DNA of 64,000 nucleotides, taken from IMG/VR virus record IMGVR_UViG_3300027730_000005. One strand, given 5' to 3'. The notes beneath the pieces were generated by a model, which had not been told where the DNA came from, made no database searches, and saw only the letters and a list, made by a program, of their open reading frames with translations. This document shows, piece by piece, positions 754 through 60,995 of this stretch. The stretch comes from a virus. Its lineage: Duplodnaviria > Caudoviricetes. Positions within the stretch are counted from its first letter, which is position 1, and each line of letters opens with the position of its first letter. A program made the translations under genes and the position numbers.

Positions 754-1339
754 ACTTATCTCCTATTATAGATTTTACTACATCGTCTGATTGAAAATAA
801 TCCCATTTGGATCTATTCTCTTCTCCTAGTATATACCTTAAATTTTTCCTTCCTCCAATTACGGTAGGATCTATACCTAATGTGTATCCTTGCCTGTAAG
901 GAATGATATGATCAAGTTGATAATCAGTTTTCCTTTTTCCAGTTATTTTAGCTGTTCCTTCTTTTTTCATAGCATACACAGTTCTATAAGTTGCTTTCTG
1001 GCATTCTCTTTTGTATGCAGTGAAATTATCATCTACATAGTTTTTAGGTCTGAGATTATTCAGTTTACCATTTTTGTTAGGATTATCAATTAACCACTTT
1101 TCTCGTTGTCTTTCATTTGGAATACCTTTGTTCCACCCATGTCCTTTAGCAAGCCCCGATGTGTTTTGTTTTGCTTTTTGGTCATCATTGAGTTTAACAC
1201 CCTTATTCCATGGAATGTGGCCTGGTCTGTTATGTGGATTTTTACACGGTTGAGAACAATATTCAAGTAACCGCGGCTTAGTAATAAATTTGTTACCGCA
1301 GAATAAACATATTTTTTGTATACCATACTTGTTTTTCAT
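743..1339 (-). CDS. HNH homing endonuclease with N-terminal Zn finger and WNKG (NUMOD-like) repeats
   Basis: CLFC...CSQPC; PWNKG/GWNKG; C-terminal LDHIIP...NLRYILGEEN. Confidence 0.75.
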   Translation of the reverse strand: MKNKYGIQKICLFCGNKFITKPRLLEYCSQPCKNPHNRPGHIPWNKGVKLNDDQKAKQNTSGLAKGHGWNKGIPNERQREKWLIDNPNKNGKLNNLRPKNYVDDNFTAYKRECQKATYRTVYAMKKEGTAKITGKRKTDYQLDHIIPYRQGYTLGIDPTVIGGRKNLRYILGEENRSKWDYFQSDDVVKSIIGDKYGV

Positions 1340-1376
1340 ACAAGTATTTATGATAGGCGCACCAGTCTGTGCAGGG

Positions 1377-1724
1377 TTAAACGCTGCGATCTTTTTTCAT
1401 TGCGGATTGTGCGGCTTGTGCTACAATATCTTGTGCTTGATTAACTGGCATGGTGACTGGTCCAGGCTTATCGCCACCTTTGAATATTAGTTCTGTAGCG
1501 TCGGGACTCATTGGCTCAATCAAACCACTCAATGGAGGTTGTCCAATTAAGGTTTGCAAAGTGTCGGGAGTGATATCTACGCCCATACTTTGTGCTCGAT
1601 TGATAAATGCCTGCACTGGCATTTGCATCTTGGCAGAAGTGTCTTGTGCTCTACCCACAGCAAACTTGGCCAAGGCCATGAGTTTGTCTGCGGTAGCATC
1701 TGCTTCTACTTCGTTGATTCGCAT
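1377..1724 (-). CDS. Hypothetical protein
   Basis: 115-aa ORF, start overlaps upstream stop; N-terminus MRINEV. Confidence 0.75.
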   Translation of the reverse strand: MRINEVEADATADKLMALAKFAVGRAQDTSAKMQMPVQAFINRAQSMGVDITPDTLQTLIGQPPLSGLIEPMSPDATELIFKGGDKPGPVTMPVNQAQDIVAQAAQSAMKKDRSV

Positions 1725-2623
1725 TATCTGCGCTCGCGTCCTAGTGCTGCGGCCGGTGCGGCTGCACCTGGTTCAACGGCTGCTATTTCAATTTCTTCTT
1801 CGCCTGGCGCAGGACCTGCTAGTCCCATATCTCCTTCTGGAGGGGACATACCTGCATCGGCTCCTGGCATTTCTACAGGACCTTGCCCAGTTACAACACC
1901 CAATGCTTGTTCTAGCTGTTGCTTGCTGCTTTGCAAATTCTGCACTAGACCACTCAATGCCGCTTGTGCATCACTGTTAAACTGTGCAGCTTGGTTAGCC
2001 CCAATTTGATTCTTGATCGAATCCACTAATGCTGGCAATTCTTTGAATTGCATCTCGGTGCTGTCTTCAATCATGTCTTGCAGTTTGTCAACCATATCTT
2101 GTGCGGCCAATACAACTTGAGCTTGTTGCACTTCACTTTCGCTGAGATAGTAACCGTAGCCTTGCGCACGTAATCGAAGTTTGGTTTCTTGTACCGAAGT
2201 AGTGGTGTTAATACTGTTGAGTTCGTTCTGCTTATCAGTTACTTGTTTTTTCAAATCGTCAAGTTCTTGTTGCACCTGCTTTTTTTGATCCATCTTTTGC
2301 TTCACAGCCATAGCAGCGGCCTGTTGAGGATTTACACCAGGAGCTGCTCCTGGTGCAGTAGTTGCGACCATTTCGGCTTCGTAGATCTTTTCAGCTAATG
2401 CTTGTTCCATCATCATGAGCTTGAGATAAGCTGGATTCTTTTGGCTGGTATGACGAGCAGAACTGCTGCGCACTTCACTTAACACACCTCGTACCTGGCG
2501 ATACATGTTATGCAGTTGTTTGCGATTCAAAGTATCAAAGTTGACCGATTGATCAAAATGACTTTCAAATACTTTAGAGATTTGTCGTGTAGGGCGTGTT
2601 ACGGCCAATTCGTTTAGTTTCAT
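1724..2623 (-). CDS. Hypothetical coiled-coil late protein (possible head/scaffold-associated)
   Basis: 299 aa, TAAATA at 2647-2652 plus GAGG SD; internal (I/V/L)xE motifs (IYEAE, VQET, LSESE). Confidence 0.75.
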   Translation of the reverse strand: MKLNELAVTRPTRQISKVFESHFDQSVNFDTLNRKQLHNMYRQVRGVLSEVRSSSARHTSQKNPAYLKLMMMEQALAEKIYEAEMVATTAPGAAPGVNPQQAAAMAVKQKMDQKKQVQQELDDLKKQVTDKQNELNSINTTTSVQETKLRLRAQGYGYYLSESEVQQAQVVLAAQDMVDKLQDMIEDSTEMQFKELPALVDSIKNQIGANQAAQFNSDAQAALSGLVQNLQSSKQQLEQALGVVTGQGPVEMPGADAGMSPPEGDMGLAGPAPGEEEIEIAAVEPGAAAPAAALGRERR

Positions 2624-3065
2624 TTGAGTTTCCTCGTAGTTGCCAGTATTTAGCCAAATTTATACATTTTGCTAGTTCTTTTTCTAGGACCTGAGTATAT
2701 TCTTGCCTAGCACTTGTTTTATTAATCAAGTTTTCCCATGTGTTTCCGGCTGTGCGATCAGCCAATGCACGACGTACATATATGTCATTGCGCAATCTAA
2801 CGACAGATTGATCTAATTCTTTTATTTGTCTAGCCAAGTTGAAATGATGTAGATTATCTGCTATGCACCAAGCCAATGCAGATTTGGTAGCAGAAAATGT
2901 GCCAATCTCATCATCACGCTGACAAACTTGAAATCCTGCAGGTACAGGGTATATGGTGTATTTGCCAAATACTCGATACTTCTTGCCATCTTCTATAATT
3001 ACTTTGTTTAAAAGCAGCGGCAACTCTTGTTCTGCTAATGCAGCCAATTTACGACTGGCTTTCAT
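2574..3065 (-). CDS. Hypothetical protein
   Basis: Track ORF 2574..3134; more likely start is ATG 3065 (MKASRKL), an ATGA overlap with the upstream stop. Confidence 0.7.
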   Translation of the reverse strand: MKASRKLAALAEQELPLLLNKVIIEDGKKYRVFGKYTIYPVPAGFQVCQRDDEIGTFSATKSALAWCIADNLHHFNLARQIKELDQSVVRLRNDIYVRRALADRTAGNTWENLINKTSARQEYTQVLEKELAKCINLAKYWQLRGNSNETKRIGRNTPYTTNL

Positions 3066-3322
3066 TTGAATACGTAGTTTGTTAGCATCCAACCCACAGT
3101 GGCCACAAGGAATCCAATTATAGCTATTCCCCACCCAACGAGTTGATCATTACGTTTGGCTGACATGGTATGCACCATTTCATGCACTGACTCTACCATG
3201 ACTTTTACCGATTCGATTCCTGATTCAACAGTTTGAATTTTGAGTTCTAGCATGCGATAACGTTCGGCACAAAGCTCAACGTGCGCCTCTAAACTTTTCT
3301 TCTCGATGTCTGTGGTGTCCAT
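3062..3322 (-). CDS. Coiled-coil protein with single C-terminal TM helix (XhlA/holin-like)
   Basis: Heptad-rich N-terminus then LVGWGIAIIGFLVATVGWML; TAAATA 4 nt before ATG. Confidence 0.6.
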   Translation of the reverse strand: MDTTDIEKKSLEAHVELCAERYRMLELKIQTVESGIESVKVMVESVHEMVHTMSAKRNDQLVGWGIAIIGFLVATVGWMLTNYVFK

Positions 3323-3325
3323 GAG

Positions 3326-3736
3326 TTATTTATGGTTCAACGGTTCAAACCAGATGTTAACATCTGGACGTAGTAATGTAGTCAATTGTTGCTCAACATA
3401 GTTAATGATAGGTACACCATCGCAGGCTTGTCGTAATCTTCCCACAGGATCATTTTCCACTGCAAACACATCATCAAATTCTGTATCAAACTCAAATTGC
3501 CAACGTTGGTCTTTGATTCTCACACGAGACACTCGTACTGGTTGTGTGTAAAGACCAATCAACTGCATGATAGTTTCCCAGTTGCGTTGTTGGTTACGAC
3601 TGCGAACCCATGTGGATACGTCAGTTACTTGCTGCCCCAGCTGATCCGTAAACGGCAGCAAATTTTCTCTTAGATGTCCGGTAACTCCAGTGGGTCTGCA
3701 ATCAAAGTCAGTGGTTATTTGTATACTCAATGTCAT
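3326..3736 (-). CDS. Hypothetical protein
   Basis: 136-aa ORF with TAAATA 4 nt upstream. Confidence 0.75.
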   Translation of the reverse strand: MTLSIQITTDFDCRPTGVTGHLRENLLPFTDQLGQQVTDVSTWVRSRNQQRNWETIMQLIGLYTQPVRVSRVRIKDQRWQFEFDTEFDDVFAVENDPVGRLRQACDGVPIINYVEQQLTTLLRPDVNIWFEPLNHK

Positions 3737-3751
3737 ATGGTATTTACGACC

Positions 3752-3780
3752 AAAAAAAAGCCCTGGAAATAAACCAGGGC
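3752..3780 (-). terminator. Rho-independent terminator
   Basis: GCCCTGG/CCAGGGC stem followed by T8 on minus strand, downstream of 3805..4236. Confidence 0.85.
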
Positions 3781-3804
3781 CTTGATTTTTGCTACCGCTT
3801 AGAA

Positions 3805-4236
3805 TTAAGTCGGAGCAAAGTTGGTTGCGCTTGTGACAAACACAGCATTACCTGCGCATGAGCTCAATTCCAGGTTCTGACCACCTGAAGCCACAGTAGC
3901 ACTGGTATTAGCAGTAGCTAGCAATGTGACGTTGGTGTAAGCACCTGTGGGATACACAGCCAAGTTCAACACTGTAGGTGCTGCTGGGCTAACTTGATAC
4001 ATGGCCACTGTGGCTTTGGTCTGAATAGCTTGCATCAGGTTGTTGATGTAGCCATTGACGTTACCGGATGTGGTCAATGAACCATTGGCTACCAAGCTGA
4101 AAAAGTCCAGCTTAGGGCCTTGGAAGTTAACTGAGCCTGTGGCTGCAATGTTAGCTGTACCTTGAATGTTACCATTCGCAGTGTCCATGTGGAATACTGG
4201 TTGTGTAGTTCCGTTTACTCTTGTAAATACTGCCAT
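3805..4236 (-). CDS. Small Ala/Thr/Asn-rich probable virion protein
   Basis: Own late box (4275-4280), AGGAG SD and terminator; beta-rich composition. Confidence 0.65.
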   Translation of the reverse strand: MAVFTRVNGTTQPVFHMDTANGNIQGTANIAATGSVNFQGPKLDFFSLVANGSLTTSGNVNGYINNLMQAIQTKATVAMYQVSPAAPTVLNLAVYPTGAYTNVTLLATANTSATVASGGQNLELSSCAGNAVFVTSATNFAPT

Positions 4237-4296
4237 TTTAAAATCTCCTAGTTAGTGGGTTTTTGCCCTACACTTATTTATGAATTTGGCAAAAAA

Positions 4297-6508: not shown

Positions 6509-6572
6509 ATGGATAAAGGCCTTTGGATTATTTATTTAAATTTGCACATACAACTTATTAATTAAATACCTG

Positions 6573-7616
6573 ATGAACAACTACTTTTGCGTTTTACCTT
6601 GGTACAGTCAAGAACTAGGATCTCAAAATAGTCCATGTTGCCTATTGCCGGACAAATACAATATTAATCAAATAAAACAAGATTTGCTCAATAACATTCC
6701 ATCTGTAGATTGTAAAAAATGTTGGGATATAGAATCCACTGGAAACAAAAGTCGCCGTCAATTTGAGAATGAATTTTTAGACTATAAATTGGATAGAGAT
6801 TTAGATAAGATTCAACAAGATTGTGCAGACTTAAAACATCAAACTTTACTTTATCAAATAACCACTAGTAATCTGTGTAATCAGGCATGTGTGAGCTGTG
6901 ATAGCAGCTTATCAACTAAATGGGCGCAGATTGAAAAACGCATGGACATAATTCCTAAATCTCAATATCAAATTGAATTAGATCCAACAATTATCAATTA
7001 CAGTTCAGCAAAACGAATTTCTTTGCTGGGCGGCGAACCGTTATTTGACCCTAAGACTTTTAAAATATTACAAAACTTAATTGACCACAATAACACTAAT
7101 TGTTTTATATCATTGATCACCAATGGCAGTATACATCTAAACATACAACAAATTGACTTACTGAAGCAGTTTAATGATTTGAATATTTGTATCAGCATTG
7201 ATGGCATTGGTACTGTATTTGAATACATGAGATGGCCCGGAAAGTGGAATAACCTACTAGAAAATATTAAACAGTACAAAAACATAGCAAAAAATATCAG
7301 TGTAAGCTACACAATTAGTTCATTGAATGCTATGTACTATAACGAAACTGTTGAGTGGTTTCAACAGAATAATCTAACATACAATCACAATGTTGTTTCA
7401 TCTCCAGAATGGCTATCACTAGCAAACATGCCAACCATACTAAAACAACACTTAACTCAACAAGATAATTTTATCAAAATGTATTGTAAGCCCAATGGAT
7501 GTGAGATAGATTTAAAAATCCTAACACAAAATATTGTTAAACAAGACCATGCAAAAAAAATAAACATCAAAGACTATATGCCTGAACTAGCTGCTGTTAT
7601 TTTTGATACTGTATAA
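6573..7616 (+). CDS. Radical SAM protein with N-terminal SPASM/twitch-like cluster
   Basis: CVLPW...PCC...CKKCW; CNQACVSC; GGEPL; ITNGS; ISIDG; EYMRWPGKW. Confidence 0.9.
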   Translation: MNNYFCVLPWYSQELGSQNSPCCLLPDKYNINQIKQDLLNNIPSVDCKKCWDIESTGNKSRRQFENEFLDYKLDRDLDKIQQDCADLKHQTLLYQITTSNLCNQACVSCDSSLSTKWAQIEKRMDIIPKSQYQIELDPTIINYSSAKRISLLGGEPLFDPKTFKILQNLIDHNNTNCFISLITNGSIHLNIQQIDLLKQFNDLNICISIDGIGTVFEYMRWPGKWNNLLENIKQYKNIAKNISVSYTISSLNAMYYNETVEWFQQNNLTYNHNVVSSPEWLSLANMPTILKQHLTQQDNFIKMYCKPNGCEIDLKILTQNIVKQDHAKKINIKDYMPELAAVIFDTV

Positions 7617-10148: not shown

Positions 10149-10153
10149 GATTA

Positions 10154-11140
10154 TTAAGAACTCCGTATTCTTTTAACAAGATTTTTCTTTCTCATTTCAA
10201 TTTTGATTCGACTGGTTTCACGATTTTCAAATATAGTTAGCAGAGTTGTCAACCTACCATAGCGAACCACGCTGTCATTCACATCCTTGATATCTGCGGG
10301 CCACGGTGGCATGCTTACTGCCCATCCTAGTTCCACAGCACGATCCACAAGTTCCATACCTGCTGAATCTTGATCTGGCACCACAGTAATCTCTCGGCCA
10401 AGTCCGCGAATTAGTCTAGCTTGTTCATCTGATATAGTGTTGTGCATTACTGCTAGGCCACCAATACTGAGTGCATCAAATATACCCTCTACTACAATTG
10501 CATTGGTCCAATCCGCATGTTGCAAATCTGTGCCAAACACATATCCCTGTTGGCTATCACTGATGTATTTGGGTGTTTTATTATCCAGAAATCTGCGAGT
10601 ATATCCCACAATGCGATTATCATGAGTAAATGGTATGATTACATTAGGTCGTGTTAGGAAGGAACGTTCTCTGTGCAATTCTATCATCAATGGATAATCA
10701 TCTGGCACATGTCTGTTTTGTACATAAGTTCTATACGGTTCTTGATCGACCAGCAATTCGCTAAAATCTGGTAGTTCACGTTCTTCAAAATTAATACCTG
10801 CTAATGTAGAATACAGTCGCTGCCGGTCATCAACGATACCGTATATGCCTCGATGTCTTAGACTTTCTAAGTTTAGCATATCAATTTCGGTGATAGGCAC
10901 ACCCATCCAGCTCAAGAGCCTACGGGCCTTATAACTCAGTGTTCGGCCAAGGATAAAGCTGGCGGTGTAGTTGCAGTTGAAGCAATGATAGCTCCACCCT
11001 TGTTCCGTAGGCTTAATTCCACCACGATTGCGTTGATCTTTTGTACTGCCATTGTGTTGACAACATACTGCATTGAAACTGGTCCAGCCTGACGGTGTGG
11101 TCTTTCGTTTTGCTGGCAAGTATTCAAGGATATCTAGCAT
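10154..11140 (-). CDS. gp61: DNA primase (T4 gp61/DnaG type)
   Basis: Zn-binding CCQH...YHCFNC; TOPRIM VVEGIFDA, VPDQD, KDVND. Confidence 0.92.
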   Translation of the reverse strand: MLDILEYLPAKRKTTPSGWTSFNAVCCQHNGSTKDQRNRGGIKPTEQGWSYHCFNCNYTASFILGRTLSYKARRLLSWMGVPITEIDMLNLESLRHRGIYGIVDDRQRLYSTLAGINFEERELPDFSELLVDQEPYRTYVQNRHVPDDYPLMIELHRERSFLTRPNVIIPFTHDNRIVGYTRRFLDNKTPKYISDSQQGYVFGTDLQHADWTNAIVVEGIFDALSIGGLAVMHNTISDEQARLIRGLGREITVVPDQDSAGMELVDRAVELGWAVSMPPWPADIKDVNDSVVRYGRLTTLLTIFENRETSRIKIEMRKKNLVKRIRSS

Positions 11141-11142
11141 CC

Positions 11143-11877
11143 TTACATTGTAGCAGAGTCTATGGTAGAAATCAACTTTTCAGTAATCATTACGTGGCCA
11201 ATTTCATTGGGGTGGCCTCCGGGCATGACAAGTTCGCGATTTCGATTTCCAGGATGGTCTCGAAACCAAAGTGTAGTTGCAAAGTTGGGCCAAATTATAG
11301 TAGGGGTGTTTTTCATTTCACATTCAGCTGGCATGATGTGAAACTGCATTATAGGTATGTTGTGTCTAGCAGATACTCCGTCAAAGAACATCACAGTCTG
11401 TTGATAGTTTAATCGTGTGAGTTCAGCACAGTTGGTCAATACCAGTTGTTGCTTGATCATGGTACGGAATTCTTCAGGTACTACACTGCTTCCAAATTCC
11501 ACCCAGGTAGAATGTATGAACTTGTTCCAAGGTGGATCGTTGGAGTAACTACGATGATTAGGATTGTAAAAGCTAAGTCTGTCAGAATCAGTGTGTCCTA
11601 CCAATACCAAACATTGTTCTGGATTGGGTTCATGCTCTAACCACCATTGAAATGTCCAAATTGAACTTTGCATGGATCCACCTGGGATGCCAAAATTTTC
11701 AACAGGTACATTGTAATGTTTACCAAGCAACCCTAAAAAGTTATGATTGGTTCGATATGTAGTATTCTGTACCCAACACGAGTGTGCATCAGAGTGTTTT
11801 TGTGCTAGTGCTGGATCCAGTAACTCGTCACCATACATCCATGAGTCACCAAATCCTACAATTTTTTTATATTTCAT
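11143..11877 (-). CDS. SGNH/GDSL-like hydrolase
   Basis: Block I VGFGDSWMYG, block II FGIPGGS, block V GGHPNEIGH. Confidence 0.7.
   Translation of the reverse strand: MKYKKIVGFGDSWMYGDELLDPALAQKHSDAHSCWVQNTTYRTNHNFLGLLGKHYNVPVENFGIPGGSMQSSIWTFQWWLEHEPNPEQCLVLVGHTDSDRLSFYNPNHRSYSNDPPWNKFIHSTWVEFGSSVVPEEFRTMIKQQLVLTNCAELTRLNYQQTVMFFDGVSARHNIPIMQFHIMPAECEMKNTPTIIWPNFATTLWFRDHPGNRNRELVMPGGHPNEIGHVMITEKLISTIDSATM
11147..11175 (-). promoter_or_regulatory. Sigma70-type promoter for primase
   Basis: TTGATT-N17-TACAAT; ATG 6 nt after -10. Confidence 0.6.
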
Positions 11878-12962: not shown

Positions 12963-13022
12963 ATGGTGCTCCAATGATATTTACCTAGAGTCTCCGGGTA
13001 TAAATATCCAAACTAATACAAT

Positions 13023-13940: not shown

Positions 13941-13944
13941 AATT

Positions 13945-15294: not shown

Positions 15295-15297
15295 AAT

Positions 15298-25748: not shown

Positions 25749-25788
25749 GATATTTTATTTACCGTTATGTGTGCCGATAAATATTTCT

Positions 25789-36979: not shown

Positions 36980-38548
36980 TCATTTGAGCAAACTCAATGA
37001 TTTTATTCTTGCCAATTGTGTTTCGTAGATGCTGTCGGAGCATTCTGCCAGGCTGTGTACTGGACAGTAATGATTCTCCATAGTGTAATTGCATTCTTTC
37101 ACAGGTTGTTGTGTTTCAAATGTAGATGGATCATCACCTTCTGCTACCGGTGCTACCGGTGCTACTGGTGCAACCTGATCTGGAGGAGGTGCTTCTACTG
37201 GCTCAGGTTGTACTGCTGGTTCCTGCACCGGCACTGGCTCAGCCACTGGCTCTGCTGGTTGTTTTAACGCACTTGACAGTTCAGCAAGTTCAGGTAGGCG
37301 GTCTTCGTTACGGTCAACCCAGGCTTGCACTAGTGGTACTGCATCTGCTGTAGGATCTTCTTGAGCCATTGCTGACAGTTGATCAAACAATACATCATCG
37401 CCGATCAAGTTGAACAATACATCTGTTACATCTTCTGCATCTGGTCCTAGTGGGCGCGGTTGACTCATCCACATTTTGAGTTCATCAATTTGTTCAGGAG
37501 TTTCAGGCACAGCCCATGTTCCTTCAACTAATTTACTTGCCCAAGATTCAAATATGTCAGCTTCTTTCATGGCTTGTGATTCTTTTTGTATACGTGCCAG
37601 CATAGGCAATGCTTGCTCTATTCTAGGATCAATACGTGTTTCAATAAACATTTCACGTAGGTCTTCCACAACCATGTCTGATTCAGTAACCTCTGCGGGT
37701 TGCCAGGATTCAAAATACTTCTCGTATCCACGACTGTTGGCCATGTATTTTAAATTTTGATTAAGCTGCTGGTAGTATTGATTGGTTTCTGTTACCAAGT
37801 TAGCCGCAGATCCTTCGTACACACGACCTTGTTGTGCTCTGCGGAACTGGCTCAAAGTATTAAGTTGACTTACTGTTTCAGATATGTGTTGTCCACGCAG
37901 ATCGTAAGGATTGCCACCTTGACGCACATGTTCTACCATGGCTCGACCACCGGCTAGTTTACGGAATGGCAAACGGAATCGTTCACCCTCGGCAGTTTCA
38001 ATAAACAAACTTTCCACATAGCGATAACGCTTGTCACCTTCTACTATGGGTTTGGAATGCTTGATCATGAGTCTAGCATCCGTTGGCTCACCAGAGTAAC
38101 TGACCTTGCGTGTGCCGTAAAAACTTTCTGTCAGTGCTGCTTGACCAGCTATGGCATACTTGAGTCTGCTGATGTTATCCAAGCTGAATCCACCACGTAC
38201 TTTACTGGTACGGATAGCAAAGTTTTTAAGTTGTTCCAAGAACCCTGTTTGCCCTGTTTCTGGATCACCATACCAGGCTTTTTTATCTTCTGGATCCATG
38301 GTACGACCTAGATTGTCACCAAAGTACACAGTCATGCCGCCATTTTGGTCCATCAGGATTACCATGGTTCCGTAGTTCTTACCAGTGGGTCCTACCCAAT
38401 CAAAACTAAACATGTCTGCTTCGGAGACATCAGGAACTCCGCGATCGTTTACAGCGGGTTTGCCGGTCTTGGTACTGAGTGCGTCAACGTCAAAATCACG
38501 AGTGATTAAGAGATTGTTGAGTTCGCTTGCGATTGAATTTTGTGCCAT
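36980..38548 (-). CDS. Large hypothetical late protein downstream of terminase
   Basis: 522 aa; TAAATA 4 nt before ATG; Pro/Ala/Glu linker near the C-terminus. Confidence 0.8.
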   Translation of the reverse strand: MAQNSIASELNNLLITRDFDVDALSTKTGKPAVNDRGVPDVSEADMFSFDWVGPTGKNYGTMVILMDQNGGMTVYFGDNLGRTMDPEDKKAWYGDPETGQTGFLEQLKNFAIRTSKVRGGFSLDNISRLKYAIAGQAALTESFYGTRKVSYSGEPTDARLMIKHSKPIVEGDKRYRYVESLFIETAEGERFRLPFRKLAGGRAMVEHVRQGGNPYDLRGQHISETVSQLNTLSQFRRAQQGRVYEGSAANLVTETNQYYQQLNQNLKYMANSRGYEKYFESWQPAEVTESDMVVEDLREMFIETRIDPRIEQALPMLARIQKESQAMKEADIFESWASKLVEGTWAVPETPEQIDELKMWMSQPRPLGPDAEDVTDVLFNLIGDDVLFDQLSAMAQEDPTADAVPLVQAWVDRNEDRLPELAELSSALKQPAEPVAEPVPVQEPAVQPEPVEAPPPDQVAPVAPVAPVAEGDDPSTFETQQPVKECNYTMENHYCPVHSLAECSDSIYETQLARIKSLSLLK

Positions 38549-38555
38549 ATAGTAT

Positions 38556-40127
38556 TTACCTCACCATTACAGAGATAAAGGGCATGGGTTCAATCACTTC
38601 TTCTCCATGATCTCGCATCTGTGTGCTTAATTCAGCATAGAAACTTTGCAGTATAGTAAGCATACGAACAGCTAATATAGTGGCCATTATAAGGTCGTCT
38701 GTTTCACCAATTTTGGCGGCATAACTTGTGCCATGTGCCACAAAGTTCTTAAGCTCGCTGATCAAGCTCTTGCTGTTAATGGTCATTCTCCCCGATTCTA
38801 TCAGATTTTTCAATTTACTACAAGCAGCCAACTTGGTTTTGTTTGTGGTGTTAAATCCTTTGCGGAATCTACGTGTACCTGGGCCAGTGGTATCACTAAG
38901 AAAATATCCTTTGATGTTCTCTTCACCCCATTCAGCAATAGAAATCAATGCTGCTTCGCCAATGGTATTGTTTTCTACTGAATAGTAAATGCTTTTCTCA
39001 TCGCCCACAGTATCATATATGTGTTTGATAATATCCTTTAAGATACGTATCTGCTCTGGAATAGGTGTTTTGTTATGTCGCCATTCACCAACTTGACGTG
39101 TGGTGTTGGCTTCAAATATCTGTATAGCGGCGGGGTCTCCACCTGTTCCCAAGCTGGGATCTAATGCCACAACGTACACTTGATCTCGGCGTATGGGTTC
39201 ATACCAACGCACTTGCCCAGTCTTGTGTATAGGATCAATCCCAGTGAGATCTAACAATTTGGCAGGTGCTATTAAAGTCTCATCATTGATAATGAATTCA
39301 CAATTCATCTCACGACGGAATCGATCATCGCCCAACTGCGCTCGCATATTATCGCCCCAGGCTTGATCACGATCTGGATGTTCTTCCCAATAGCTGCGAT
39401 AGGCTTTGAATCCATTCATACCCAGCTCAGTGGGATTGCCATATTCATCTTCACATTTGTTGGCCCCTTTCCACAAGTAAGCAAACTGGTCCTCGTCTGA
39501 ATTGGGGGTTGATGTGATAATAGCTTTACCACCTGTGGCCAGTGTGGGCGATATACTTGTCCAAAACTCTTTGGCAATAGTAGGACGCACATAAGCAAAC
39601 TCGTCGGCGTACAGCAAGGTAATACTCATACCACGACCAGTTGTTTCAGTTGTGGTAGCTGAAACTATTCGGCTACCGTTTTCAAAGTCTATGGATCCTT
39701 TGTTGTAGTTTGTGGCACCTGCTCGTATGTGATCAGGGCACAACTCATAAGCAAATCTTATTCGTTGCATGATCTCTTGAGCGCCGGTGTATTTGTGTGC
39801 TGCTATCAAGATAGTGGAATCAGGTACAAACATAGCGTACCAAAGTATGTAACCTGCTGCTGATGTTGATTTGCCGGTCTGTCGCGGCATCATGGAGATT
39901 GAATATCTGTTGTGATGATATGTATCAATCAGGTTCTTTTGATATTCAAAAGGATGATACAGCATCTTGCCCTGTGTGGGGTGCTGGATATAGAAGAAGT
40001 TGTCCATGAAGTAGTGTGGCCCTGTATCAGGGTCAGCACATTTCAAAAATTCGTCTAGTTCTTCTTCGGTAAATTTCTGACGACGATGTGGTGCCTTGAT
40101 CAGCACCCCTTCAATTGGTTTTGCCAT
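38556..40127 (-). CDS. gp17: Terminase large subunit (T4 gp17 type)
   Basis: RQTGKS, LYADEFA, ITSTPN, nuclease LDPSLG, DDLIMA. Confidence 0.95.
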   Translation of the reverse strand: MAKPIEGVLIKAPHRRQKFTEEELDEFLKCADPDTGPHYFMDNFFYIQHPTQGKMLYHPFEYQKNLIDTYHHNRYSISMMPRQTGKSTSAAGYILWYAMFVPDSTILIAAHKYTGAQEIMQRIRFAYELCPDHIRAGATNYNKGSIDFENGSRIVSATTTETTGRGMSITLLYADEFAYVRPTIAKEFWTSISPTLATGGKAIITSTPNSDEDQFAYLWKGANKCEDEYGNPTELGMNGFKAYRSYWEEHPDRDQAWGDNMRAQLGDDRFRREMNCEFIINDETLIAPAKLLDLTGIDPIHKTGQVRWYEPIRRDQVYVVALDPSLGTGGDPAAIQIFEANTTRQVGEWRHNKTPIPEQIRILKDIIKHIYDTVGDEKSIYYSVENNTIGEAALISIAEWGEENIKGYFLSDTTGPGTRRFRKGFNTTNKTKLAACSKLKNLIESGRMTINSKSLISELKNFVAHGTSYAAKIGETDDLIMATILAVRMLTILQSFYAELSTQMRDHGEEVIEPMPFISVMVR

Positions 40128-40611: not shown

Positions 40612-41220
40612 TCATGCTATTTGATATGTGCCCGAGATATCAAAGTGTGCGCCTGCTTGCCAGGCGCCTGTGGCTGGAGTGTTGAATTTCCAAACTAGAT
40701 CAGAGACGCTACCAGAATAATACAGTTTCATCACTGTAGGGCTGTCGCTGATGTCTGTGATGCCAGCAATATGGTATAAGGCAGGAGAACCAGCACCTGC
40801 TGTTTGATGCAGGCTGCCGCCGGCCAGTCTAAATGTGTTTATTGCTGGCGTGGGCAATGTTATCTGATATCCTGTGCTGCCAAAGTTGGTAACTCCTGTA
40901 AAATCAATATATACATGTATAAACATCAAAGGACCCATGCGCACATAGGATGCTGTGACAGTACCTCCAGCAAATGTACCCGATCCGTCAGTAAATTGCG
41001 GGTTGAATGTTGTGCTGCTGGTAACGCCAGATCCGTATGCGACCAAATTTAGATTTCCATTGACGTTGCCCACATAGATATCTTGTGTGAGTTGGTTGAC
41101 TACTAATTCACTTGGGCGAGCAACGCCATTGTAGTCAGCAATGGTCTCTTGAGCATTGTCTTTCATTACTGCACGGCTTATGCCGGTGATATCATCATAG
41201 GGTGGTGGTGGATTTGCCAT
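40612..41220 (-). CDS. Small fibre/decoration protein
   Basis: N-terminal ELVV...IYVG anchor-like motif; C-terminal YVRMGPLMFIHV receptor-binding-type beta domain. Confidence 0.55.
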   Translation of the reverse strand: MANPPPPYDDITGISRAVMKDNAQETIADYNGVARPSELVVNQLTQDIYVGNVNGNLNLVAYGSGVTSSTTFNPQFTDGSGTFAGGTVTASYVRMGPLMFIHVYIDFTGVTNFGSTGYQITLPTPAINTFRLAGGSLHQTAGAGSPALYHIAGITDISDSPTVMKLYYSGSVSDLVWKFNTPATGAWQAGAHFDISGTYQIA

Positions 41221-41258
41221 AGTCGTTTATTTAGCAAACATTGTTTAATGCTAGAATC

Positions 41259-43808: not shown

Positions 43809-43809
43809 A

Positions 43810-46320: not shown

Positions 46321-46323
46321 GGT

Positions 46324-46932: not shown

Positions 46933-46952
46933 ATCAGTGTCCTATGTGATAT

Positions 46953-47447: not shown

Positions 47448-47483
47448 ACCATATTTACCGGATCTGTAATCCTGGTAAACTCT

Positions 47484-49419: not shown

Positions 49420-49425
49420 ATATTA

Positions 49426-50043: not shown

Positions 50044-50082
50044 ATTTGTAATCTCCTATGCAGTTATTTACCTCTGTTGAGG

Positions 50083-50115
50083 CCAAAAGAAATGGGGTGT
50101 GCCACCCCATTTCTT
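50083..50115 (-). terminator. Terminator between sheath and tube genes
   Basis: 13-bp stem AAGAAATGGGGTG/CACCCCATTTCTT plus TT; tube has its own TAAATA at 50065-50070. Confidence 0.8.
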
Positions 50116-50130
50116 AGTCTAGCGGTATCG

Positions 50131-53589: not shown

Positions 53590-53686
53590 GTTATGGTTTC
53601 CTTTTCAAGTTACAGATATTTATCGGATGCCACCAAAAGTCACGGTGTTGCGGCTACCTTTGCAAAGGTTTACGGCTAAATATCAC

Positions 53687-54031
53687 ATGAGACCCATGTG
53701 CAATGTATGTAATCAACGAATGGTAGCAGTAAACTATCGAAAAGATGATGTTGTTCATTATCGATCAAGATGTGATCGATGTATCAAACAAAAAAAGAAA
53801 ATTCGTCCATCAGAAGCATTGTGGAAAAAAGCAGGATACAAGAAAAAACCCACATGCGATCGCTGTGGGTTTAGACCTAGACTAACCAGTCAAACTCTAG
53901 TGTATCACATGGATGGTAACATGCGAAACGTTGCGCTGACCAATCTTAGAACAGTGTGTTTGAACTGTGTAGAAGAAGTCAAGCGGCTTGACGTTCCGTG
54001 GGTTCCAAATCCGTTACAAGCAGATCATTGA
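53687..54031 (+). CDS. Zn-finger HNH-like protein
   Basis: CNVC, CDRC x2, YHMDGNMRN..LTNLRTVCLNC; likely start ATG 53687, 4 nt after TAAATA. Confidence 0.7.
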   Translation: MRPMCNVCNQRMVAVNYRKDDVVHYRSRCDRCIKQKKKIRPSEALWKKAGYKKKPTCDRCGFRPRLTSQTLVYHMDGNMRNVALTNLRTVCLNCVEEVKRLDVPWVPNPLQADH

Positions 54032-54656: not shown

Positions 54657-55368
54657 CGTGCCACCTCTTATAATTCATTGGATCAACTAGTTTACTACAA
54701 TAAGGACATTGTTGTCTAGTAGAATTGAGTTTTTCTTCACGCTTTTTTTGGCGTTGTTCTAGTGAATGTTGTTTACCAAAAAAACCATTTTTCTCTCCCG
54801 TTGGCCCTGGGCGACCCTTGTTGGCCATACTTAACTTTTTTCTAGTTTCATCAGTAACCGGAGGTTTATTTTTTCCGGCTATAGATTTTATAAGTTTAGT
54901 TTCAGGAGAGTCTTTTTTTCCTAGTCTAGACTGTCTTATTTTTTCTTTTGTTTCTTCAGAATGTGCCCTGCCCAAAAATGTACCATCTCCATCTTTGAAT
55001 CTTTCTTTTTGTGATTGACTAAGTTTCAACCTGGTTTCGTCTGGCATAGGTGGCAACGATGTTTTTAAAATTTCGTAAATCCTACTTGTGGTTTTGTATC
55101 GCTGTTGACCAGGGCCAATGCGATTAGCCATCATTATCGATGCTTTGACCATCTTATATCTTAAAGTACCGGCAAGCATTTTTGTTAGCAACAAGTGGCA
55201 TATAAAATGCTCTTTTGCGGTCAAGATAACAAGATTGGAAATGTCATTACTTCCGCCCATACACTTTGGTACAATGTGGTGCTTTTCTGTATATCCATCT
55301 AATTTACGGGATGAAGCTTTTGCAATTATATTATTATAACATTTTGTATATTTGTTATCAATGAACAT
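54631..55368 (-). CDS. HNH homing endonuclease with NUMOD3 repeats
   Basis: YTEKHHIVPKCMGGSN..NLVILTAKEHFICH; HSEETKEKIR, ETRKKLS; C-terminal CPYC. Confidence 0.88.
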   Translation of the reverse strand: MFIDNKYTKCYNNIIAKASSRKLDGYTEKHHIVPKCMGGSNDISNLVILTAKEHFICHLLLTKMLAGTLRYKMVKASIMMANRIGPGQQRYKTTSRIYEILKTSLPPMPDETRLKLSQSQKERFKDGDGTFLGRAHSEETKEKIRQSRLGKKDSPETKLIKSIAGKNKPPVTDETRKKLSMANKGRPGPTGEKNGFFGKQHSLEQRQKKREEKLNSTRQQCPYCSKLVDPMNYKRWHGDRCKYRK

Positions 55369-55412
55369 ACTTTATTTAGTCTAATATGTCCAGGATAAGA
55401 TATTACTTTAAA

Positions 55413-56425: not shown

Positions 56426-56430
56426 GCTGT

Positions 56431-56459
56431 ATTATAGCATGACATGTGAGTTTATGCAA
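56431..56459 (-). promoter_or_regulatory. Sigma70-type promoter
   Basis: TTGCAT-N17-TATAAT; ATG 5 nt after -10. Confidence 0.7.
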
Positions 56460-57310: not shown

Positions 57311-58073
57311 TAACCCAGCTTAAAGGAGCACTGCCATCAACATAATTAACCAATTGTGTGATCAATGCATCCATTTCAGCTTTGGCTTCGCTTTTCATTG
57401 CTGCACCGTTGAGAGTACCGCCGCCGTTGGGGCCAGCAATAGTGCCAAATTTCTCTCTTGCTTCACCAATGATCATCTTGCTAGCTGCCACAAGATAGTC
57501 TTTGATCCATTGCTGAATTTGAAAGTCACTTAGCAATTGTATTTCAGGTTTGAGATTGTAAGTCCATAGCAACACTACTTCACCTCCGCCTGCAGGACTA
57601 CGGATCAGCTGTAGTTTTTTGGTAACTGGATTCCAAGTGTAGTTTAAGAATCCACCAAACATTCTAGCAGCTAGCTCTACGTATTGACTGTAGAAGTCGT
57701 AAGTGGCCAGGCCACCTGATTGGTTAAAGTTGATTAGATACACATTCATCTGTGCTTGGCTAAACGGGTCAAAGTTTGAACCAAATGGACCCGATGCTAT
57801 ACCAAAACTACGTTTGAAAATCTGTCTAACACTTTGCACTTCCTGGGGCAAAGTGTAGATGTTTTGCTGGTTAACCAGCTGCATGAAGCTGTAACTTTCT
57901 TCATATGCATTGTTAGCACGTTGGCGGTAGGTGCCAATGGTTTTTTGATATGCAGCTTCAAAGTGTGCTGGGTCCAGTTCGATGTCAATGATCTGGTGGC
58001 CCAACATCAGGCGCACGTACTCAAACAAATTGTTTTTGAGTGTTACTAGGTCTATAGGTTGTTGTTCTTGCAT
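57303..58073 (-). CDS. gp13: Neck protein (T4 gp13-like)
   Basis: RLMLG..IIDIEL, AASKMIIGEAREKF, GGGTLNG. Confidence 0.8.
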   Translation of the reverse strand: MQEQQPIDLVTLKNNLFEYVRLMLGHQIIDIELDPAHFEAAYQKTIGTYRQRANNAYEESYSFMQLVNQQNIYTLPQEVQSVRQIFKRSFGIASGPFGSNFDPFSQAQMNVYLINFNQSGGLATYDFYSQYVELAARMFGGFLNYTWNPVTKKLQLIRSPAGGGEVVLLWTYNLKPEIQLLSDFQIQQWIKDYLVAASKMIIGEAREKFGTIAGPNGGGTLNGAAMKSEAKAEMDALITQLVNYVDGSAPLSWVIG

Positions 58074-58097
58074 CAGGGACTCCGTCCCTGATATTTA
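58072..58097 (-). promoter_or_regulatory. Late TAAATA box overlapping a hairpin that sequesters SD and start codon
   Basis: TAAAT-ATCAGGGAC-GGA-GTCCCTGAT-G on minus strand. Confidence 0.75.
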
Positions 58098-58102
58098 GCC
58101 CG

Positions 58103-59266
58103 TTACCACACCTTGAGAATGATGAGATTGTCGTTGCCACGCCCGTTCCACTGAGTCTCAGTTGTGGTCAGTTCCTTGAAGATCTTGCGTGTGGCTGGTT
58201 TGCCCGCAGACATTAGTGCTTTGATAGTTTCTGCAGGCTTTCGCAGTGTTTTTTGCGAGCTTGTGCCTGTATCAAACCCAATCACAGCTGAACTTTTTAC
58301 AGTAAAGTTACCGCGGTGTGCATCGCCTACCACATGGATTAGTTTACGCTTCACAGTATCGTACAACCACGCTTCTGTTGCATTCACCAGCTTCACAGCA
58401 GGTTCTGATACCAGTTTGAGATCTGGAAAAGTCTTGAGATACTTGAACTTGGCTGTGACTTTTTCGGCACTCACTGCTTTCTTGGCACGTGGCTTGCGTT
58501 CAACTTTCTTGATCTGCACATAGTTGTTGCAATCAGTAATCACTTGTTCAGCAAACTTTACCAGTTGTTTCAACTGAGTTTTGGTCAGATAGCCGTAGCC
58601 TTCTACCAACTGTGCATCCTTGCCTACTACAACAGCTTCTAGCTCTGTGAGATGGCGTTTCCAGATCTGTTGAATCTGATGAATCAGTTGTGGTGCTACA
58701 TTGTGTCCACGAATGATTGTAATGGGTTGAAATTGCGCAGACATCTTTGCGCCTGCTGCAATAAAGTCATCAAACAAGCCTTCGAGTTCACCAGCTGCTT
58801 CACTTGCTCTTTCTCGCAGTCGATCCTGGATAGAAGGGCCTGCTACTTTGGCTTCTACACTTGCTTCAGGCTTGGTTGACTCTTCGTCCGTCAATGCGTC
58901 CTGAATAAATGCATCCAGTTTGGCTTGCTCCGGCTCACTCAGTTCCAGGCCCATGGTACTCATGCGGCACAACCACCCTGTGGTCAGATGTATTTGACTG
59001 TCAGGTAGAGCCCGGATTTTCTTGGCTTCTCGATTGCGATTGTGTGCATCCAAGTAATATGCAATAAAGTCTTTGGCATCTTTCTTGCTGTAGAAATAGT
59101 TATACCAACCAAACGCATGGCTCAGTCTGCTGATGCGATTGCTCACAGGTTGCAAATGCCATTCAGGTTCATTGCCCATATACTTGGTGTCTGGACTACG
59201 GGGATTTAACGATTTAACGTTGGCTTTTGCAGCTAGGACCATGAGTTTTACTTTAGTAGTTGTCAT
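58103..59266 (-). CDS. Hypothetical early protein
   Basis: 387 aa after TTGACC-N17-TATAAT (59273-59301). Confidence 0.8.
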   Translation of the reverse strand: MTTTKVKLMVLAAKANVKSLNPRSPDTKYMGNEPEWHLQPVSNRISRLSHAFGWYNYFYSKKDAKDFIAYYLDAHNRNREAKKIRALPDSQIHLTTGWLCRMSTMGLELSEPEQAKLDAFIQDALTDEESTKPEASVEAKVAGPSIQDRLRERASEAAGELEGLFDDFIAAGAKMSAQFQPITIIRGHNVAPQLIHQIQQIWKRHLTELEAVVVGKDAQLVEGYGYLTKTQLKQLVKFAEQVITDCNNYVQIKKVERKPRAKKAVSAEKVTAKFKYLKTFPDLKLVSEPAVKLVNATEAWLYDTVKRKLIHVVGDAHRGNFTVKSSAVIGFDTGTSSQKTLRKPAETIKALMSAGKPATRKIFKELTTTETQWNGRGNDNLIILKVW

Positions 59267-59272
59267 GCTGTA

Positions 59273-59301
59273 ATTATAGCAGGTTAGTCTTTTTTGGTCA
59301 A
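59273..59301 (-). promoter_or_regulatory. Sigma70-type promoter
   Basis: TTGACC-N17-TATAAT; ATG 6 nt after -10. Confidence 0.8.
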
Positions 59302-59565
59302 GTCAGTACAAAGTAGTACAAAACTCAAATCAGATTCTTTACGAAACATGATAAAGTAAGGAGTGGCGGCGTATACGTTTCTTTTTCCGAAATAGCCAGT
59401 CCAACTTGAATCACCAGGCTGAAAACAGCCCGAGGGTCCTAGCCGTTCGCGGCAAGAGCTCTCAATCTCACGAGCATTGTTGCCATAGGTGTTGAACCGC
59501 AATCCAGCTTGGTACCTGTGCTCGTTGAAAATTCGATATCTACGATTTAGCTTTATAACTTTCAT
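59284..59565 (-). CDS. Hypothetical early protein
   Basis: 93 aa after a consensus promoter. Confidence 0.7.
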   Translation of the reverse strand: MKVIKLNRRYRIFNEHRYQAGLRFNTYGNNAREIESSCRERLGPSGCFQPGDSSWTGYFGKRNVYAATPYFIMFRKESDLSFVLLCTDLTKKD

Positions 59566-59571
59566 GTGTGT

Positions 59572-59600
59572 ATTATACCTGAAGCAGACTTTCTGGTCAA
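59572..59600 (-). promoter_or_regulatory. Sigma70-type promoter
   Basis: TTGACC-N17-TATAAT; ATG 6 nt after -10; back-to-back with TAAATA 59609-59614 on plus strand. Confidence 0.8.
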
Positions 59601-59621
59601 CCTGGGCATAAATAACACACT

Positions 59622-60995
59622 ATGCCAAAACTTTCCATGTACAGGCCTAATCGAACGGCCGACTATCGATTTTTTGATCGAACTATTTCAGAAATGTATC
59701 AGGTCGGGGGAGTCGACATGTATCTGCACAAATACCTAGGTCCGCAAACTGGTGACAATACTGGTAACAATGATGCTACATTGCCCAAATACGACACAAC
59801 TAATCCGCTGTTTATTGAAGATTTACTACTGTTAGAAAATCGTGACAGAACCTACGATCCAGATATCTATGTCATGCGTGGTGTTTACAAAACACAGGAC
59901 ATTGATTTTGATCTCACCCAGTTTGGCCTGTTCTTAAACAATGACACTGTGTTTATCACATTCCATTACAATGACATGATTGATACCATGGGTCGCAAAC
60001 TCATGAGCGGGGATGTTCTAGAGCTGCCTAATTTACGTGACTACAATCCGCTGGATTCTACCATACCCAGAGCCTTGCCCAAGTGGTATGTGATTCAAGA
60101 CGCTGCATTTGCCAGCGAAGGTTTTAGTCAAACCTGGTTACCTCACTTGTGGCGTGTGAAAGCCACTCCTATGGTCAATGCACAAGAATTTGATCAAATT
60201 ACCAAACAACCGTTTGAACCCATTAACATTTGGGATCCAGGCAATTTTTATCCAGGTGGTGTCACAGTGCTGTATGGCGACAAATATTACACATCAAACA
60301 AAAATGTTCCACCAGGAACAGATATTACCAATACAGAATACTGGACAGAAAAGACCAATCCAGAAACCATTGAGGATCGACAAAGTACCCGCCCGCGCAA
60401 TTTGGCAATCAATGATGCTATCTTGGTGCAAGCAGAAGCAGAAGTACCACGTTCAGGGTTTGATGTTGTGAAGTTTTATATTGTAGCAACCAATCCTGAC
60501 GGCACACCTGCTAATCCTGAATCCGCCACTTACACTGCTGACTACACTATTAGTGATGCTAGCCGTACCGTGGCCAATGATGGCAATTCACCCAGAAGTG
60601 ATGGCTATACAGCTGGTTACTTGACTGGAGATGGTGTAGCGCCCAACGGATTGCCAGTCACTGCTGGTGTTAATTTTCCACCCAACCCCACTGCTGGACA
60701 GTTTGCATTACGCTTGGATTATTTCCCCAATCGACTGTTTCGTTTCAACGGATCAGGTTGGGTCAAGATTGAAAGCAATGTACGAACCAATCTCACACCG
60801 GGTGCCAACAACGATACTTTACGCTCATCGTTTGTTAACAATACATACACTGTGAATACCACAGACCTTGGTAACGTACCTAGCCGTCAGAGTTTGAGTG
60901 AAGCATTGATACCCGATGCAGCCAACGGTGATCAAGGTGGTAATTTGCCACCCAATCCGTATCCGCCAACACAACCTTACCAAAAATCCAGCTAA
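59622..60995 (+). CDS. Neck/head-closure protein (gp14-like)
   Basis: FFDRTISE...GVDMYLHKY, QFGLFL, GDVLELP; adjacent to gp13 and gp15 genes. Confidence 0.6.
   Translation: MPKLSMYRPNRTADYRFFDRTISEMYQVGGVDMYLHKYLGPQTGDNTGNNDATLPKYDTTNPLFIEDLLLLENRDRTYDPDIYVMRGVYKTQDIDFDLTQFGLFLNNDTVFITFHYNDMIDTMGRKLMSGDVLELPNLRDYNPLDSTIPRALPKWYVIQDAAFASEGFSQTWLPHLWRVKATPMVNAQEFDQITKQPFEPINIWDPGNFYPGGVTVLYGDKYYTSNKNVPPGTDITNTEYWTEKTNPETIEDRQSTRPRNLAINDAILVQAEAEVPRSGFDVVKFYIVATNPDGTPANPESATYTADYTISDASRTVANDGNSPRSDGYTAGYLTGDGVAPNGLPVTAGVNFPPNPTAGQFALRLDYFPNRLFRFNGSGWVKIESNVRTNLTPGANNDTLRSSFVNNTYTVNTTDLGNVPSRQSLSEALIPDAANGDQGGNLPPNPYPPTQPYQKSS

Follow-up and report, generated by a model that had tools for sequence, protein, structure and literature searches.

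Promoter elements abutting start codons in an uncultured freshwater jumbo phage: probable leaderless mRNAs in early and late genes

How might a phage gene be translated when its promoter leaves no room for a ribosome-binding site? The question is raised by a 64,000-nucleotide (nt) stretch of the record IMGVR_UViG_3300027730_000005 (Caudoviricetes; 41–45% GC), here called the window, in which the hexamer TAAATA or a complete sigma70-type promoter repeatedly ends only a few nucleotides before a start codon. About 20 of the roughly 80 genes in the window (about a quarter) have a promoter element from which, by T4 or sigma70 geometry, the transcription start would lie no more than about 3 nt from the AUG. 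These promoter-fused starts probably give rise to leaderless or near-leaderless mRNAs (leaders of 0–3 nt) in both the early and the late programme, beside sheath, tube and adaptor mRNAs that would be led by Shine-Dalgarno (SD) sequences.

The window is assigned to an uncultured freshwater jumbo myophage of the PA5oct/Atu_ph07/Rak2-like branch of T4-related phages. It encodes a T4-type terminase (38556–40127), a tail sheath protein of 1152 amino acids (aa; 50131–53589), tube proteins and a head-tail adaptor, as well as helicases, a primase and a single-stranded-DNA-binding protein. The nearest cultured relatives by protein similarity are the Pseudomonas PA5oct group (terminase 52.6% identity), Atu_ph07/Phosso and Rak2-like jumbo phages; no near-identical record was found among 50,697 phage genomes. 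Window DNA is present in lake and freshwater metagenomes; RNA runs carrying 50001–60000 or 59230–61000 were sought and none was found. IMG/VR contains hundreds of related contigs, three of which, all large, were taken whole: G003 (157 kb, ~97% identical at gene 59622), G001 (317 kb) and G002 (209 kb). Together with the window these form the clade set. For the statistics, genes were called greedily as longest open reading frames (ORFs), blind to motifs, giving 80 genes in the window; SD sequences were scored as AGGA, GGAG or GAGG. A TAAATA box 4–7 nt before a start defines the short (fused) class, and one 13–30 nt before a start the long class. Genes are cited by the position of their start codon.

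TAAATA is not over-represented in the window overall (41 copies on both strands vs. 46.7 expected from shuffles); what stands out is its placement, with 10–14 copies located 4–7 nt before starts vs. 0.1–0.64 expected. It is the commonest hexamer ending at this distance from longest-ORF starts (10 of 80 genes), the runner-up being the SD-like AGGATA with five, whereas for 14 hexamers with identical base composition the mean is 0.64 occurrences and the maximum three (Poisson p ~2e-9). The first-pass annotation of this DNA had listed 14 such late boxes, and every one was found as claimed (Table). Box-to-start distances are also bimodal: the counts at 4–7, 8–12 and 13–30 nt are 10, 0 and 9 in the window, 12, 0 and 16 in G003, 23, 2 and 29 in G001, and 16, 0 and 16 in G002, or 61, 2 and 70 when pooled. 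Chance is excluded as the source of this placement.

The same pipeline yielded 0, 3 and 28 boxes in these distance ranges for T4 and 1, 8 and 37 for PA5oct. The bare pattern TAAATA-N4-ATG does not exceed its reversed-pattern control in T4, PA5oct, Atu_ph07 or GAP32, and lies far above it in G001–G003; TAAATA-N4-5-ATG showed no clear excess over control in Phosso, SCTP-2, a Vibrio jumbo phage or two cyanophages. Overlap with stop codons or AT content, which the annotation had named as possible trivial sources, does not explain the boxes, as hexamers of the same composition are rare at these positions and 49 of the 61 fused boxes in the clade are fully intergenic. Of these 49, 24 lie in divergent gaps, some measuring only 24–56 nt.

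Several features identify TAAATA as the putative core of a late promoter of the T4-family, gp55-dependent type. The box precedes the sheath, tube, adaptor and virion structural genes, in addition to glycan-synthesis, radical SAM and homing-endonuclease genes, and before SD-led virion genes its position is the one that a -10 element should have. It follows terminator-like hairpins in 13 of 131 cases, vs. 2.5% of other genes; for the fused boxes the corresponding count is 4 of 61, which fits promoters, if weakly. In T4, gp55 recognises the late promoter, TATAAATA at -13 to -6, together with gp33 and the gp45 clamp (PMC2988020); for the Rak2-like jumbo phages CBB and GAP32 the predicted late motif is ATAAATA, with gp33 and gp45 reported undetectable in CBB (PMC5259590). 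Among the clade boxes, whose core is constant because they were picked by it, the eight preceding positions are not strongly conserved, and those equivalent to -13/-12 are not TA, a likeness to the late promoters of Aeromonas phage Aeh1 (PMC2988020). A gp55-type late sigma factor is encoded by G001 (L084:4292-5206; phrog_12791, E 3.8e-75; phrog_234, E 1e-23) and by G002, PA5oct having an equivalent too, and T4 gp55 itself matches G001 and G002 by tblastn (E ~2e-6). The G001 protein has 304 aa vs. 185 in T4. In G001, G002 and PA5oct the matches to T4 gp55 residues 1–33 and 6–115 are separated by about 330 nt, a sign that this branch may share an insertion or an extended N-terminus.

Fusion to the start codon extends to early genes, through a different element. 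All six TTGnnn-N17-TAnnnT promoters that the annotation had placed 5–6 nt before an ATG were recovered (Table); each has TTG at -35 and a spacing of exactly 17 nt, and three carry TGn before the -10 box. The -35 elements of 56425 and 16614 agree with the consensus at just 3 of 6 positions, and in an independent consensus scan the two highest-ranking sites within 55000–60000, each with 11 of 12 matches, were those of 59565 and 59266. TATAAT-like hexamers peak 5–6 nt before starts (8 in the window vs. 1.2 per 3-nt bin elsewhere); no peak of -10-like hexamers at 5–7 nt was found in T4, PA5oct or HTVC008M, a cultured T4-like myophage of Pelagibacter (SAR11). Strict -35/-10 promoters ending 4–8 nt before a start number three in the window, three in G003, six in G001 and one in G002, compared with none in T4 and one in PA5oct. 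Two further -10-like hits, 5 nt before 49419 and 43829, were dropped, one being located within an SD sequence, AGGATAAT, and the other at a doubtful TTG start.

A discrete set of TAAATA boxes is followed by conventional leaders. The annotation was correct in setting apart the sheath, tube, gp13-like adaptor and 3805–4236 genes as having the box plus a longer leader with AGGA/GGAG; the leaders measure 18–38 nt. The shortest SD-led leader of the window (12960–12983, -) probably belongs to ATG 12962, with TAAATA 15 nt upstream. The longest-ORF start of this gene, TTG 12974, is probably wrong, and its candidacy as a fused case with a 3-nt spacer was dropped, GGAG being situated 6 nt upstream of ATG 12962. 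A second box, at 13001–13006 (+), belongs to the divergent gene 13023.

The two classes differ in more than distance. Across the clade, the short class starts with ATG in 60 of 61 cases and has an SD sequence in 3 of 61, compared with an SD in 49 of 70 long-class genes; among other genes, by crude start calls, only ~28–35% have AGGA, GGAG or GAGG. Folding of the first 40 nt is also weaker in short-class genes than in other genes (-2.4 vs. -4.1 kcal/mol, p 7e-6). These traits can be set beside the three measured determinants of leaderless initiation in Caulobacter, namely AUG preference, an absent leader and an accessible 5' end; there, 4.4% of leaderless mRNAs have non-AUG starts, and each added 5' base roughly halves initiation (PMC8459731). 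Because the fused genes have neither an SD sequence nor room for one, and a discrete TAAATA class has SD leaders of 13–30 nt, two translation-initiation classes would be a fair description of this phage, as the annotation had proposed.

The arrangement is retained across relatives, most extensively at gene 59622, which encodes a virion protein and for which 67 distinct orthologous loci were compared (55–97% N-terminal identity). The box lies 4–7 nt from the ATG in 55 of the 67; every one of these starts with ATG and none has an SD sequence. Their spacers are mostly 7 nt long and read NNNNACT, the remaining letters varying freely, and in 32 of the 55 a divergent sigma70-type promoter adjoins the ATG of the neighbouring gene. 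Among the other 12 loci, 11 have AGGA/GGAG, and the start is ATG in seven and ATT or GTG in five: eight have a box 13–60 nt upstream, always with AGGA/GGAG, and four have no box within 90 nt (SD in three). Three SD-led orthologs (L062, L073 and L077) apparently use ATT as start codon, behind a strong GGAG. The protein tree requires five or more changes of layout, none of them accompanied by a shift of the SD in the same direction. Fisher p values for layout against SD at this gene take no account of relatedness and serve as description only.

For eight other genes (16614, 56425, 11140, 18972, 47447, 38548, 53687 and 25789), the fused layout is retained in G001, G002 or G003. Among the early genes, a -10 box 5–6 nt before the ATG persists in all three orthologs of 56425, 16614 and 11140 keep their layout in G003 and G001, and the G001 ortholog of 18972 reads TTGACT-N17-TATAAT-N5-ATG. 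Among the late genes, TAAATA-N4-ATG recurs in the G003 and G002 orthologs of 47447 with differing spacer letters; 38548 is fused in G003 (4 nt) and G002 (7 nt); the orthologs of 53687 begin at the same residue behind a box in G003 (N4) and G002 (N5); and start 25789 is backed by the G003 and G001 orthologs, each with its own box before the same residue, and by a PHROG profile beginning at residue 4. Retention is not universal: the orthologs of 3322 have the same layout in G003 and lack the box in G001, and the G001 ortholog of 41220 is leadered and has no box. Leaders with SD-like purine runs occur in the PA5oct orthologs of 16614 (~20-nt leader), 38548 (25-nt leader with AAGG) and 59622 and in the G002 relatives of 55368 (20-nt leader with AGGA) and 59266. 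N-terminal conservation extends to residue 1, both among orthologs and in PHROG profiles.

Where, then, would transcription begin? Sigma70 geometry puts +1 on the A of the ATG for early spacers of 5–6 nt, and the 5-nt late spacers (three of the 14) agree with T4 numbering. The commonest late spacer, found at seven of the 14, is 4 nt long; in T4 numbering, which counts the sixth base past the box as +1, it would put the start on the U of the AUG, so that initiation must occur one base nearer the box than it does in T4, or must be flexible. One of the remaining spacers measures 6 nt and three measure 7 nt. An A is enriched at the fifth base after the box (box+5) in both the fused (36 of 61) and the SD-led (36 of 69) classes, and the 7-nt spacers, which read NNNNACT, have a conserved A at this position. 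From these As we infer that the holoenzyme of this clade starts at box+5 or box+6, leaving 5' untranslated regions of 0–3 nt.

The proposed scheme is as follows. Host sigma70-type promoters (TTGnnn, 17 nt, TAnAAT) would serve the replication genes, and the T4-family late box would be read by the gp55-type sigma factor. Fusion of the -10-type element to the coding sequence would apply to about half of the window's late promoters and to most of its early ones, and there RNA polymerase would start at the A of the AUG or no more than about 3 nt before it. Lacking an SD sequence, the resulting mRNAs would have to be translated via the leaderless pathway, by recognition of the 5'-terminal AUG, while the remaining late promoters, including those of sheath, tube and adaptor, would produce leaders of 13–30 nt with AGGA/GGAG for ordinary SD-dependent initiation.

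A number of points weigh against this scheme. Start positions, both here and in the relatives, are deduced from promoter–ATG spacing, and gene starts derive from the longest-ORF rule, not from a separate gene model. For the commonest spacer one has to assume a start that lies a base nearer the box than T4's (PMC2988020), and 7-nt spacers imply leaders of 2–3 nt, a length that lowers leaderless initiation in Caulobacter (PMC8459731). It was in relatives, rather than within the 64-kb window, that the late sigma gene was located; weak 5' folding is not clearly different from that of SD-led promoter-proximal genes (p 0.07); and the independent contrasts at 59622, although all in the expected direction, comprise 4–5 pairs only (sign test p 0.125–0.25). 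Of what the annotation had claimed, about 20 mRNAs starting at or next to AUG in two translation classes, the layout, its non-random spacing and the two classes stand, and the layout is conserved across a large clade; the start sites themselves are drawn from spacing, and the 4-nt spacers misfit T4 geometry.

Part of the same evidence could be read differently. The boxes may be real promoters whose short RNAs yield little protein, the abutting ATGs being translated mainly from read-through RNAs, SD-independently or by coupling (termination-reinitiation, or S1-assisted entry at A/U-rich RNA). Termination-reinitiation could act at the 12 of 61 fused boxes that overlap the stop or 3' end of an upstream gene, as at 38548, where the terminase stop lies inside the box; many operon-internal genes likewise have no clear SD, and the poor agreement of the 4-nt spacer with T4 start geometry points the same way. 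We nevertheless consider this unlikely, since most fused boxes are intergenic and the 24 that face a divergent gene have no upstream same-strand transcript or ribosome to draw on, and since some, such as that of 3736, follow terminator hairpins. Coupling, moreover, needs no conserved box at 4–7 nt, and predicts neither the empty 8–12 nt zone nor the absence of the layout from T4 and PA5oct.

Still less likely is that TAAATA near a start works not as a promoter but within the RNA, where it would enhance translation as an A/U-rich element or offer ribosomes another binding site. The motif is A/U-rich and placed where an enhancer could act; elsewhere, however, the same hexamer lies 13–30 nt upstream and is followed by a canonical SD, too distant for a ribosome-binding site and matching the late-promoter position of the T4 family (PMC5259590), and hexamers of the same composition are not enriched. 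A signal for transcription is also favoured by the early genes, where a different element, a complete sigma70 promoter with -35 and -10, is fused in like manner. That the pattern is an artefact, produced by AT-rich intergenic DNA, stops inside TAAATA and over-extended or mis-called starts, is largely refuted and very improbable. A TAA in the box with a 6-nt spacer would by itself define the first ATG after a stop, and three of the 14 late starts (25789, 53687 and GTG 57253) differ from the longest-ORF start; GTG 57253, with no ortholog support, is doubtful. Most spacers, however, are 4, 5 or 7 nt long, placing the TAA out of frame with the start codon, the enrichment over same-composition hexamers is more than 10-fold, T4 (35% GC) and PA5oct (33% GC) are more AT-rich than the window yet show 0 and 1 short cases, and N-termini are conserved.

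Table. Promoter–start arrangements in the window. Distances are listed from the promoter toward the start codon; fused, element 4–7 nt before the start; SD, Shine-Dalgarno.
Span	Strand	Type	Arrangement	Product	Remark
1337..1350	-	TAAATA, fused	TAAATA 1345-1350, 5 nt, ATG 1339	198 aa, phrog_5104	box intergenic; upstream gene ends 1377
3320..3332	-	TAAATA, fused	TAAATA 3327-3332, 4 nt, ATG 3322	86 aa	box overlaps stop of upstream gene
3734..3790	-	TAAATA, fused	terminator-like hairpin + T-run, TAAATA 3741-3746, 4 nt, ATG 3736	136 aa	same layout in G003
6563..6575	+	TAAATA, fused	TAAATA, 4 nt, ATG 6573	radical SAM protein, 347 aa	
22186..22200	+	TAAATA, fused	TAAATA, 6 nt, ATG 22198	glycosyltransferase-like, 228 aa	
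25746..25791	- and +	TAAATA, fused	(-) box 25756-25761, 7 nt, ATG 25748; (+) box 25778-25783, 5 nt, ATG 25789		back-to-back pair
38546..38558	-	TAAATA, fused	TAAATA 38553-38558, 4 nt, ATG 38548	virion protein, 522 aa	TAA of box is terminase stop
41218..41233	-	TAAATA, fused	TAAATA, 7 nt (aacgACT), ATG 41220	202 aa	
47445..47457	-	TAAATA, fused	TAAATA, 4 nt, ATG 47447	164 aa, phrog_16202	
53677..53689	+	TAAATA, fused	TAAATA, 4 nt, ATG 53687	114 aa	divergent from sheath gene
55366..55378	-	TAAATA, fused	TAAATA, 4 nt, ATG 55368	homing endonuclease, 245 aa	
57251..57264	-	TAAATA, fused	TAAATA, 5 nt, GTG 57253		doubtful: non-ATG, not longest-ORF start, no ortholog support
59563..59624	+	TAAATA, fused	TAAATA 59609-59614, 7 nt, ATG 59622		56-nt divergent control region, + side
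59563..59624	-	sigma70-type, fused	TTGACC 59595-59600, 17 nt, TATAAT 59572-59577, 6 nt, ATG 59565		same region, - side
59264..59301	-	sigma70-type, fused	TTGACC, 17 nt, TGC-TATAAT, 6 nt, ATG 59266	387 aa	
56423..56459	-	sigma70-type, fused	TTGCAT, 17 nt, TGC-TATAAT, 5 nt, ATG 56425	exonuclease, 173 aa	
18970..19006	-	sigma70-type, fused	TTGACT, 17 nt, TATATT, 5 nt, ATG 18972	287 aa	
16612..16649	-	sigma70-type, fused	TTGCAT, 17 nt, TACAAT, 6 nt, ATG 16614	166 aa, phrog_11279	profile from residue 1
11138..11175	-	sigma70-type, fused	TTGATT, 17 nt, TGC-TACAAT, 6 nt, ATG 11140	primase, 328 aa	
53587..53622	-	TAAATA, SD leader	TAAATA 53617-53622, 27-nt leader with AAGGAAA, ATG 53589	tail sheath, 1152 aa	
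50041..50070	-	TAAATA, SD leader	TAAATA, 21-nt leader with AGGAG, ATG 50043	tail tube	
58071..58097	-	TAAATA, SD leader	TAAATA, 18-nt leader with GGAG, ATG 58073	head-tail adaptor, gp13-like	
4234..4280	-	TAAATA, SD leader	TAAATA, 38-nt leader with AGGAG, ATG 4236	143 aa	

The two divergent gaps in the Table are extremely compact: 25749–25788, where start codons are separated by just 40 nt, and 59566–59621 each contain two promoters and nothing else. A glycan-synthesis cluster, at 25789–30436 (+) and 22198–22884 (+), also lies behind fused late promoters; its genes encode a cytidylyltransferase-cupin fusion, a GT8 glycosyltransferase, a TylF-type methyltransferase and a DXD glycosyltransferase. 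The homing endonuclease gene (54631–55368, -; phrog_655, E 7e-52) lies between virion genes and has a TAAATA-N4-ATG promoter of its own. Two paralogous genes, 743–1339 (-) and 56432–57253 (-), both match phrog_5104 at their C-termini, and each has TAAATA 5 nt before its proposed start (ATG and GTG, respectively).

Two translation-related genes were considered. A phage-encoded ribosomal protein bS21 is present in G001 (L141:1480-1683; PF01165, 60 bits), and as PA5oct, which does not have the fused layout, carries an equivalent at about 170988–171104, bS21 was rejected as a correlate of the fused-promoter trait. The best bacterial matches of the G001 protein (55–70% identity) are nearly all from Betaproteobacteria (Burkholderiales, Neisseriales), together with one Francisella and one unclassified Proteobacteria metagenome-assembled genome, a weak hint that the host may be betaproteobacterial; Betaproteobacteria are not known to be leaderless-rich. 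The annotation had speculated that the layout might match a leaderless-rich host, or might favour phage mRNA when SD-dependent initiation is impaired. For translation initiation factor IF3, PF00707 (IF3_C) had no match in G001, G002 or G003. The first gene of Atu_ph07 (NC_042013.1, 244-747) is annotated as a translation initiation factor.

If transcription starts where the spacing predicts, T4-type late transcription would gain a second mode of expression, in which promoters are fused to the start codon, and leaderless initiation would be quantitatively important for virus production in lakes and, via HTVC008M, in the ocean's most abundant bacterium. Gene finders that rely on SD sequences will misplace fused starts, and seemingly "intergenic" regions of 24–56 nt contain two complete promoters; for synthetic biology, the layout offers very compact promoter–ORF cassettes. 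A larger reading, which we offer as speculation and think rather doubtful, is that this large and abundant freshwater clade, and HTVC008M independently, run a deliberate two-tier translation programme, with leaderless mRNAs from about half of the late-sigma promoters and many early ones, and SD leaders for the most abundant virion proteins. Such a programme, if real, would allow phage protein synthesis to be partitioned or protected, for example when 30S- or SD-dependent initiation is limited or remodelled during infection, and would imply gp55-type holoenzymes that are tunable to start exactly on the AUG.

No paper was found that connects leaderless mRNAs with late promoters of the T4 type or with jumbo phages. 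Neither phiKZ nor AR9 makes leaderless transcripts (PMC8244752, PMC5312081), and the PA5oct omics paper describes TTGAC/TATAATA promoters with leaderless mRNAs unmentioned (PMC7318152). The late promoters of this phage resemble those of T4 and CBB/GAP32 in their TAAATA core, the absence of a conserved -35 element, virion genes on either strand and a gp55-type sigma (here in relatives). They differ from those of T4, PA5oct, Atu_ph07, GAP32, Phosso, SCTP-2, the Vibrio jumbo phage and the two cyanophages, which have no excess of boxes at 4–7 nt and whose late genes have SD-bearing leaders; here about half of the boxes adjoin the start codon, and the 4-nt spacer implies a start one base nearer the box than in T4. 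A cultured T4-like phage with a similar late layout is HTVC008M, which has 13 TAAATA boxes 4–7 nt before starts, 10 at exactly 5 nt, compared with a mean of 1.7 for same-composition hexamers. HTVC008M comes from another family (Kyanoviridae-like, 147 kb, 33% GC), its nearly fixed 5-nt spacer fits T4 geometry, and it has no sigma70-type -10 peak at 5–7 nt; no papers calling its transcripts leaderless were found.

Leaderless expression itself is known outside this branch. The lambda cI gene, transcribed from PRM, is a single leaderless phage gene (Shean and Gottesman 1992, as cited in PMC12340547), and bacterial leaderless mRNAs are described in Caulobacter, mycobacteria and Deinococcus (PMC8459731, PMC4633059, PMC4007540). 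Like them, the fused genes have a -10 box about 6 nt before the AUG, strongly prefer AUG and are without an SD, and their 5' ends fold more weakly than those of other genes in general; those cases, however, are single regulatory genes or host-wide traits, whereas here a large share of phage promoters is involved, some of them probably read by a phage sigma factor. A phage-wide precedent is provided by the Thermus phages phiYS40 and Lalka27a, most of whose middle and late transcripts are leaderless, according to the accounts in PMC3594737 and PMC12340547 (citing Sevostyanova et al. 2007) and bioRxiv 10.64898/2026.04.20.719267. As those accounts describe it, the likeness comprises a phage-wide programme, a -10 element beside the ORF, RNA that begins at the initiator codon, and more than one temporal class; the Thermus phages are unrelated, and their 5' ends were mapped experimentally, whereas starts here are read from promoter–ATG spacing. 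The late -10 element of Lalka27a is TAGGGT, unlike TAAATA, and in the host phylum of these phages leaderless mRNAs are the norm, with the -10 region commonly beside the ORF (PMC12340547). Unlike the Thermus phages, this phage has a discrete SD-led class coexisting with the fused one, and its host is probably a proteobacterium. The layout would be a variant of two known kinds of system, the late promoters of T4-type phages and the leaderless programmes of other phages.

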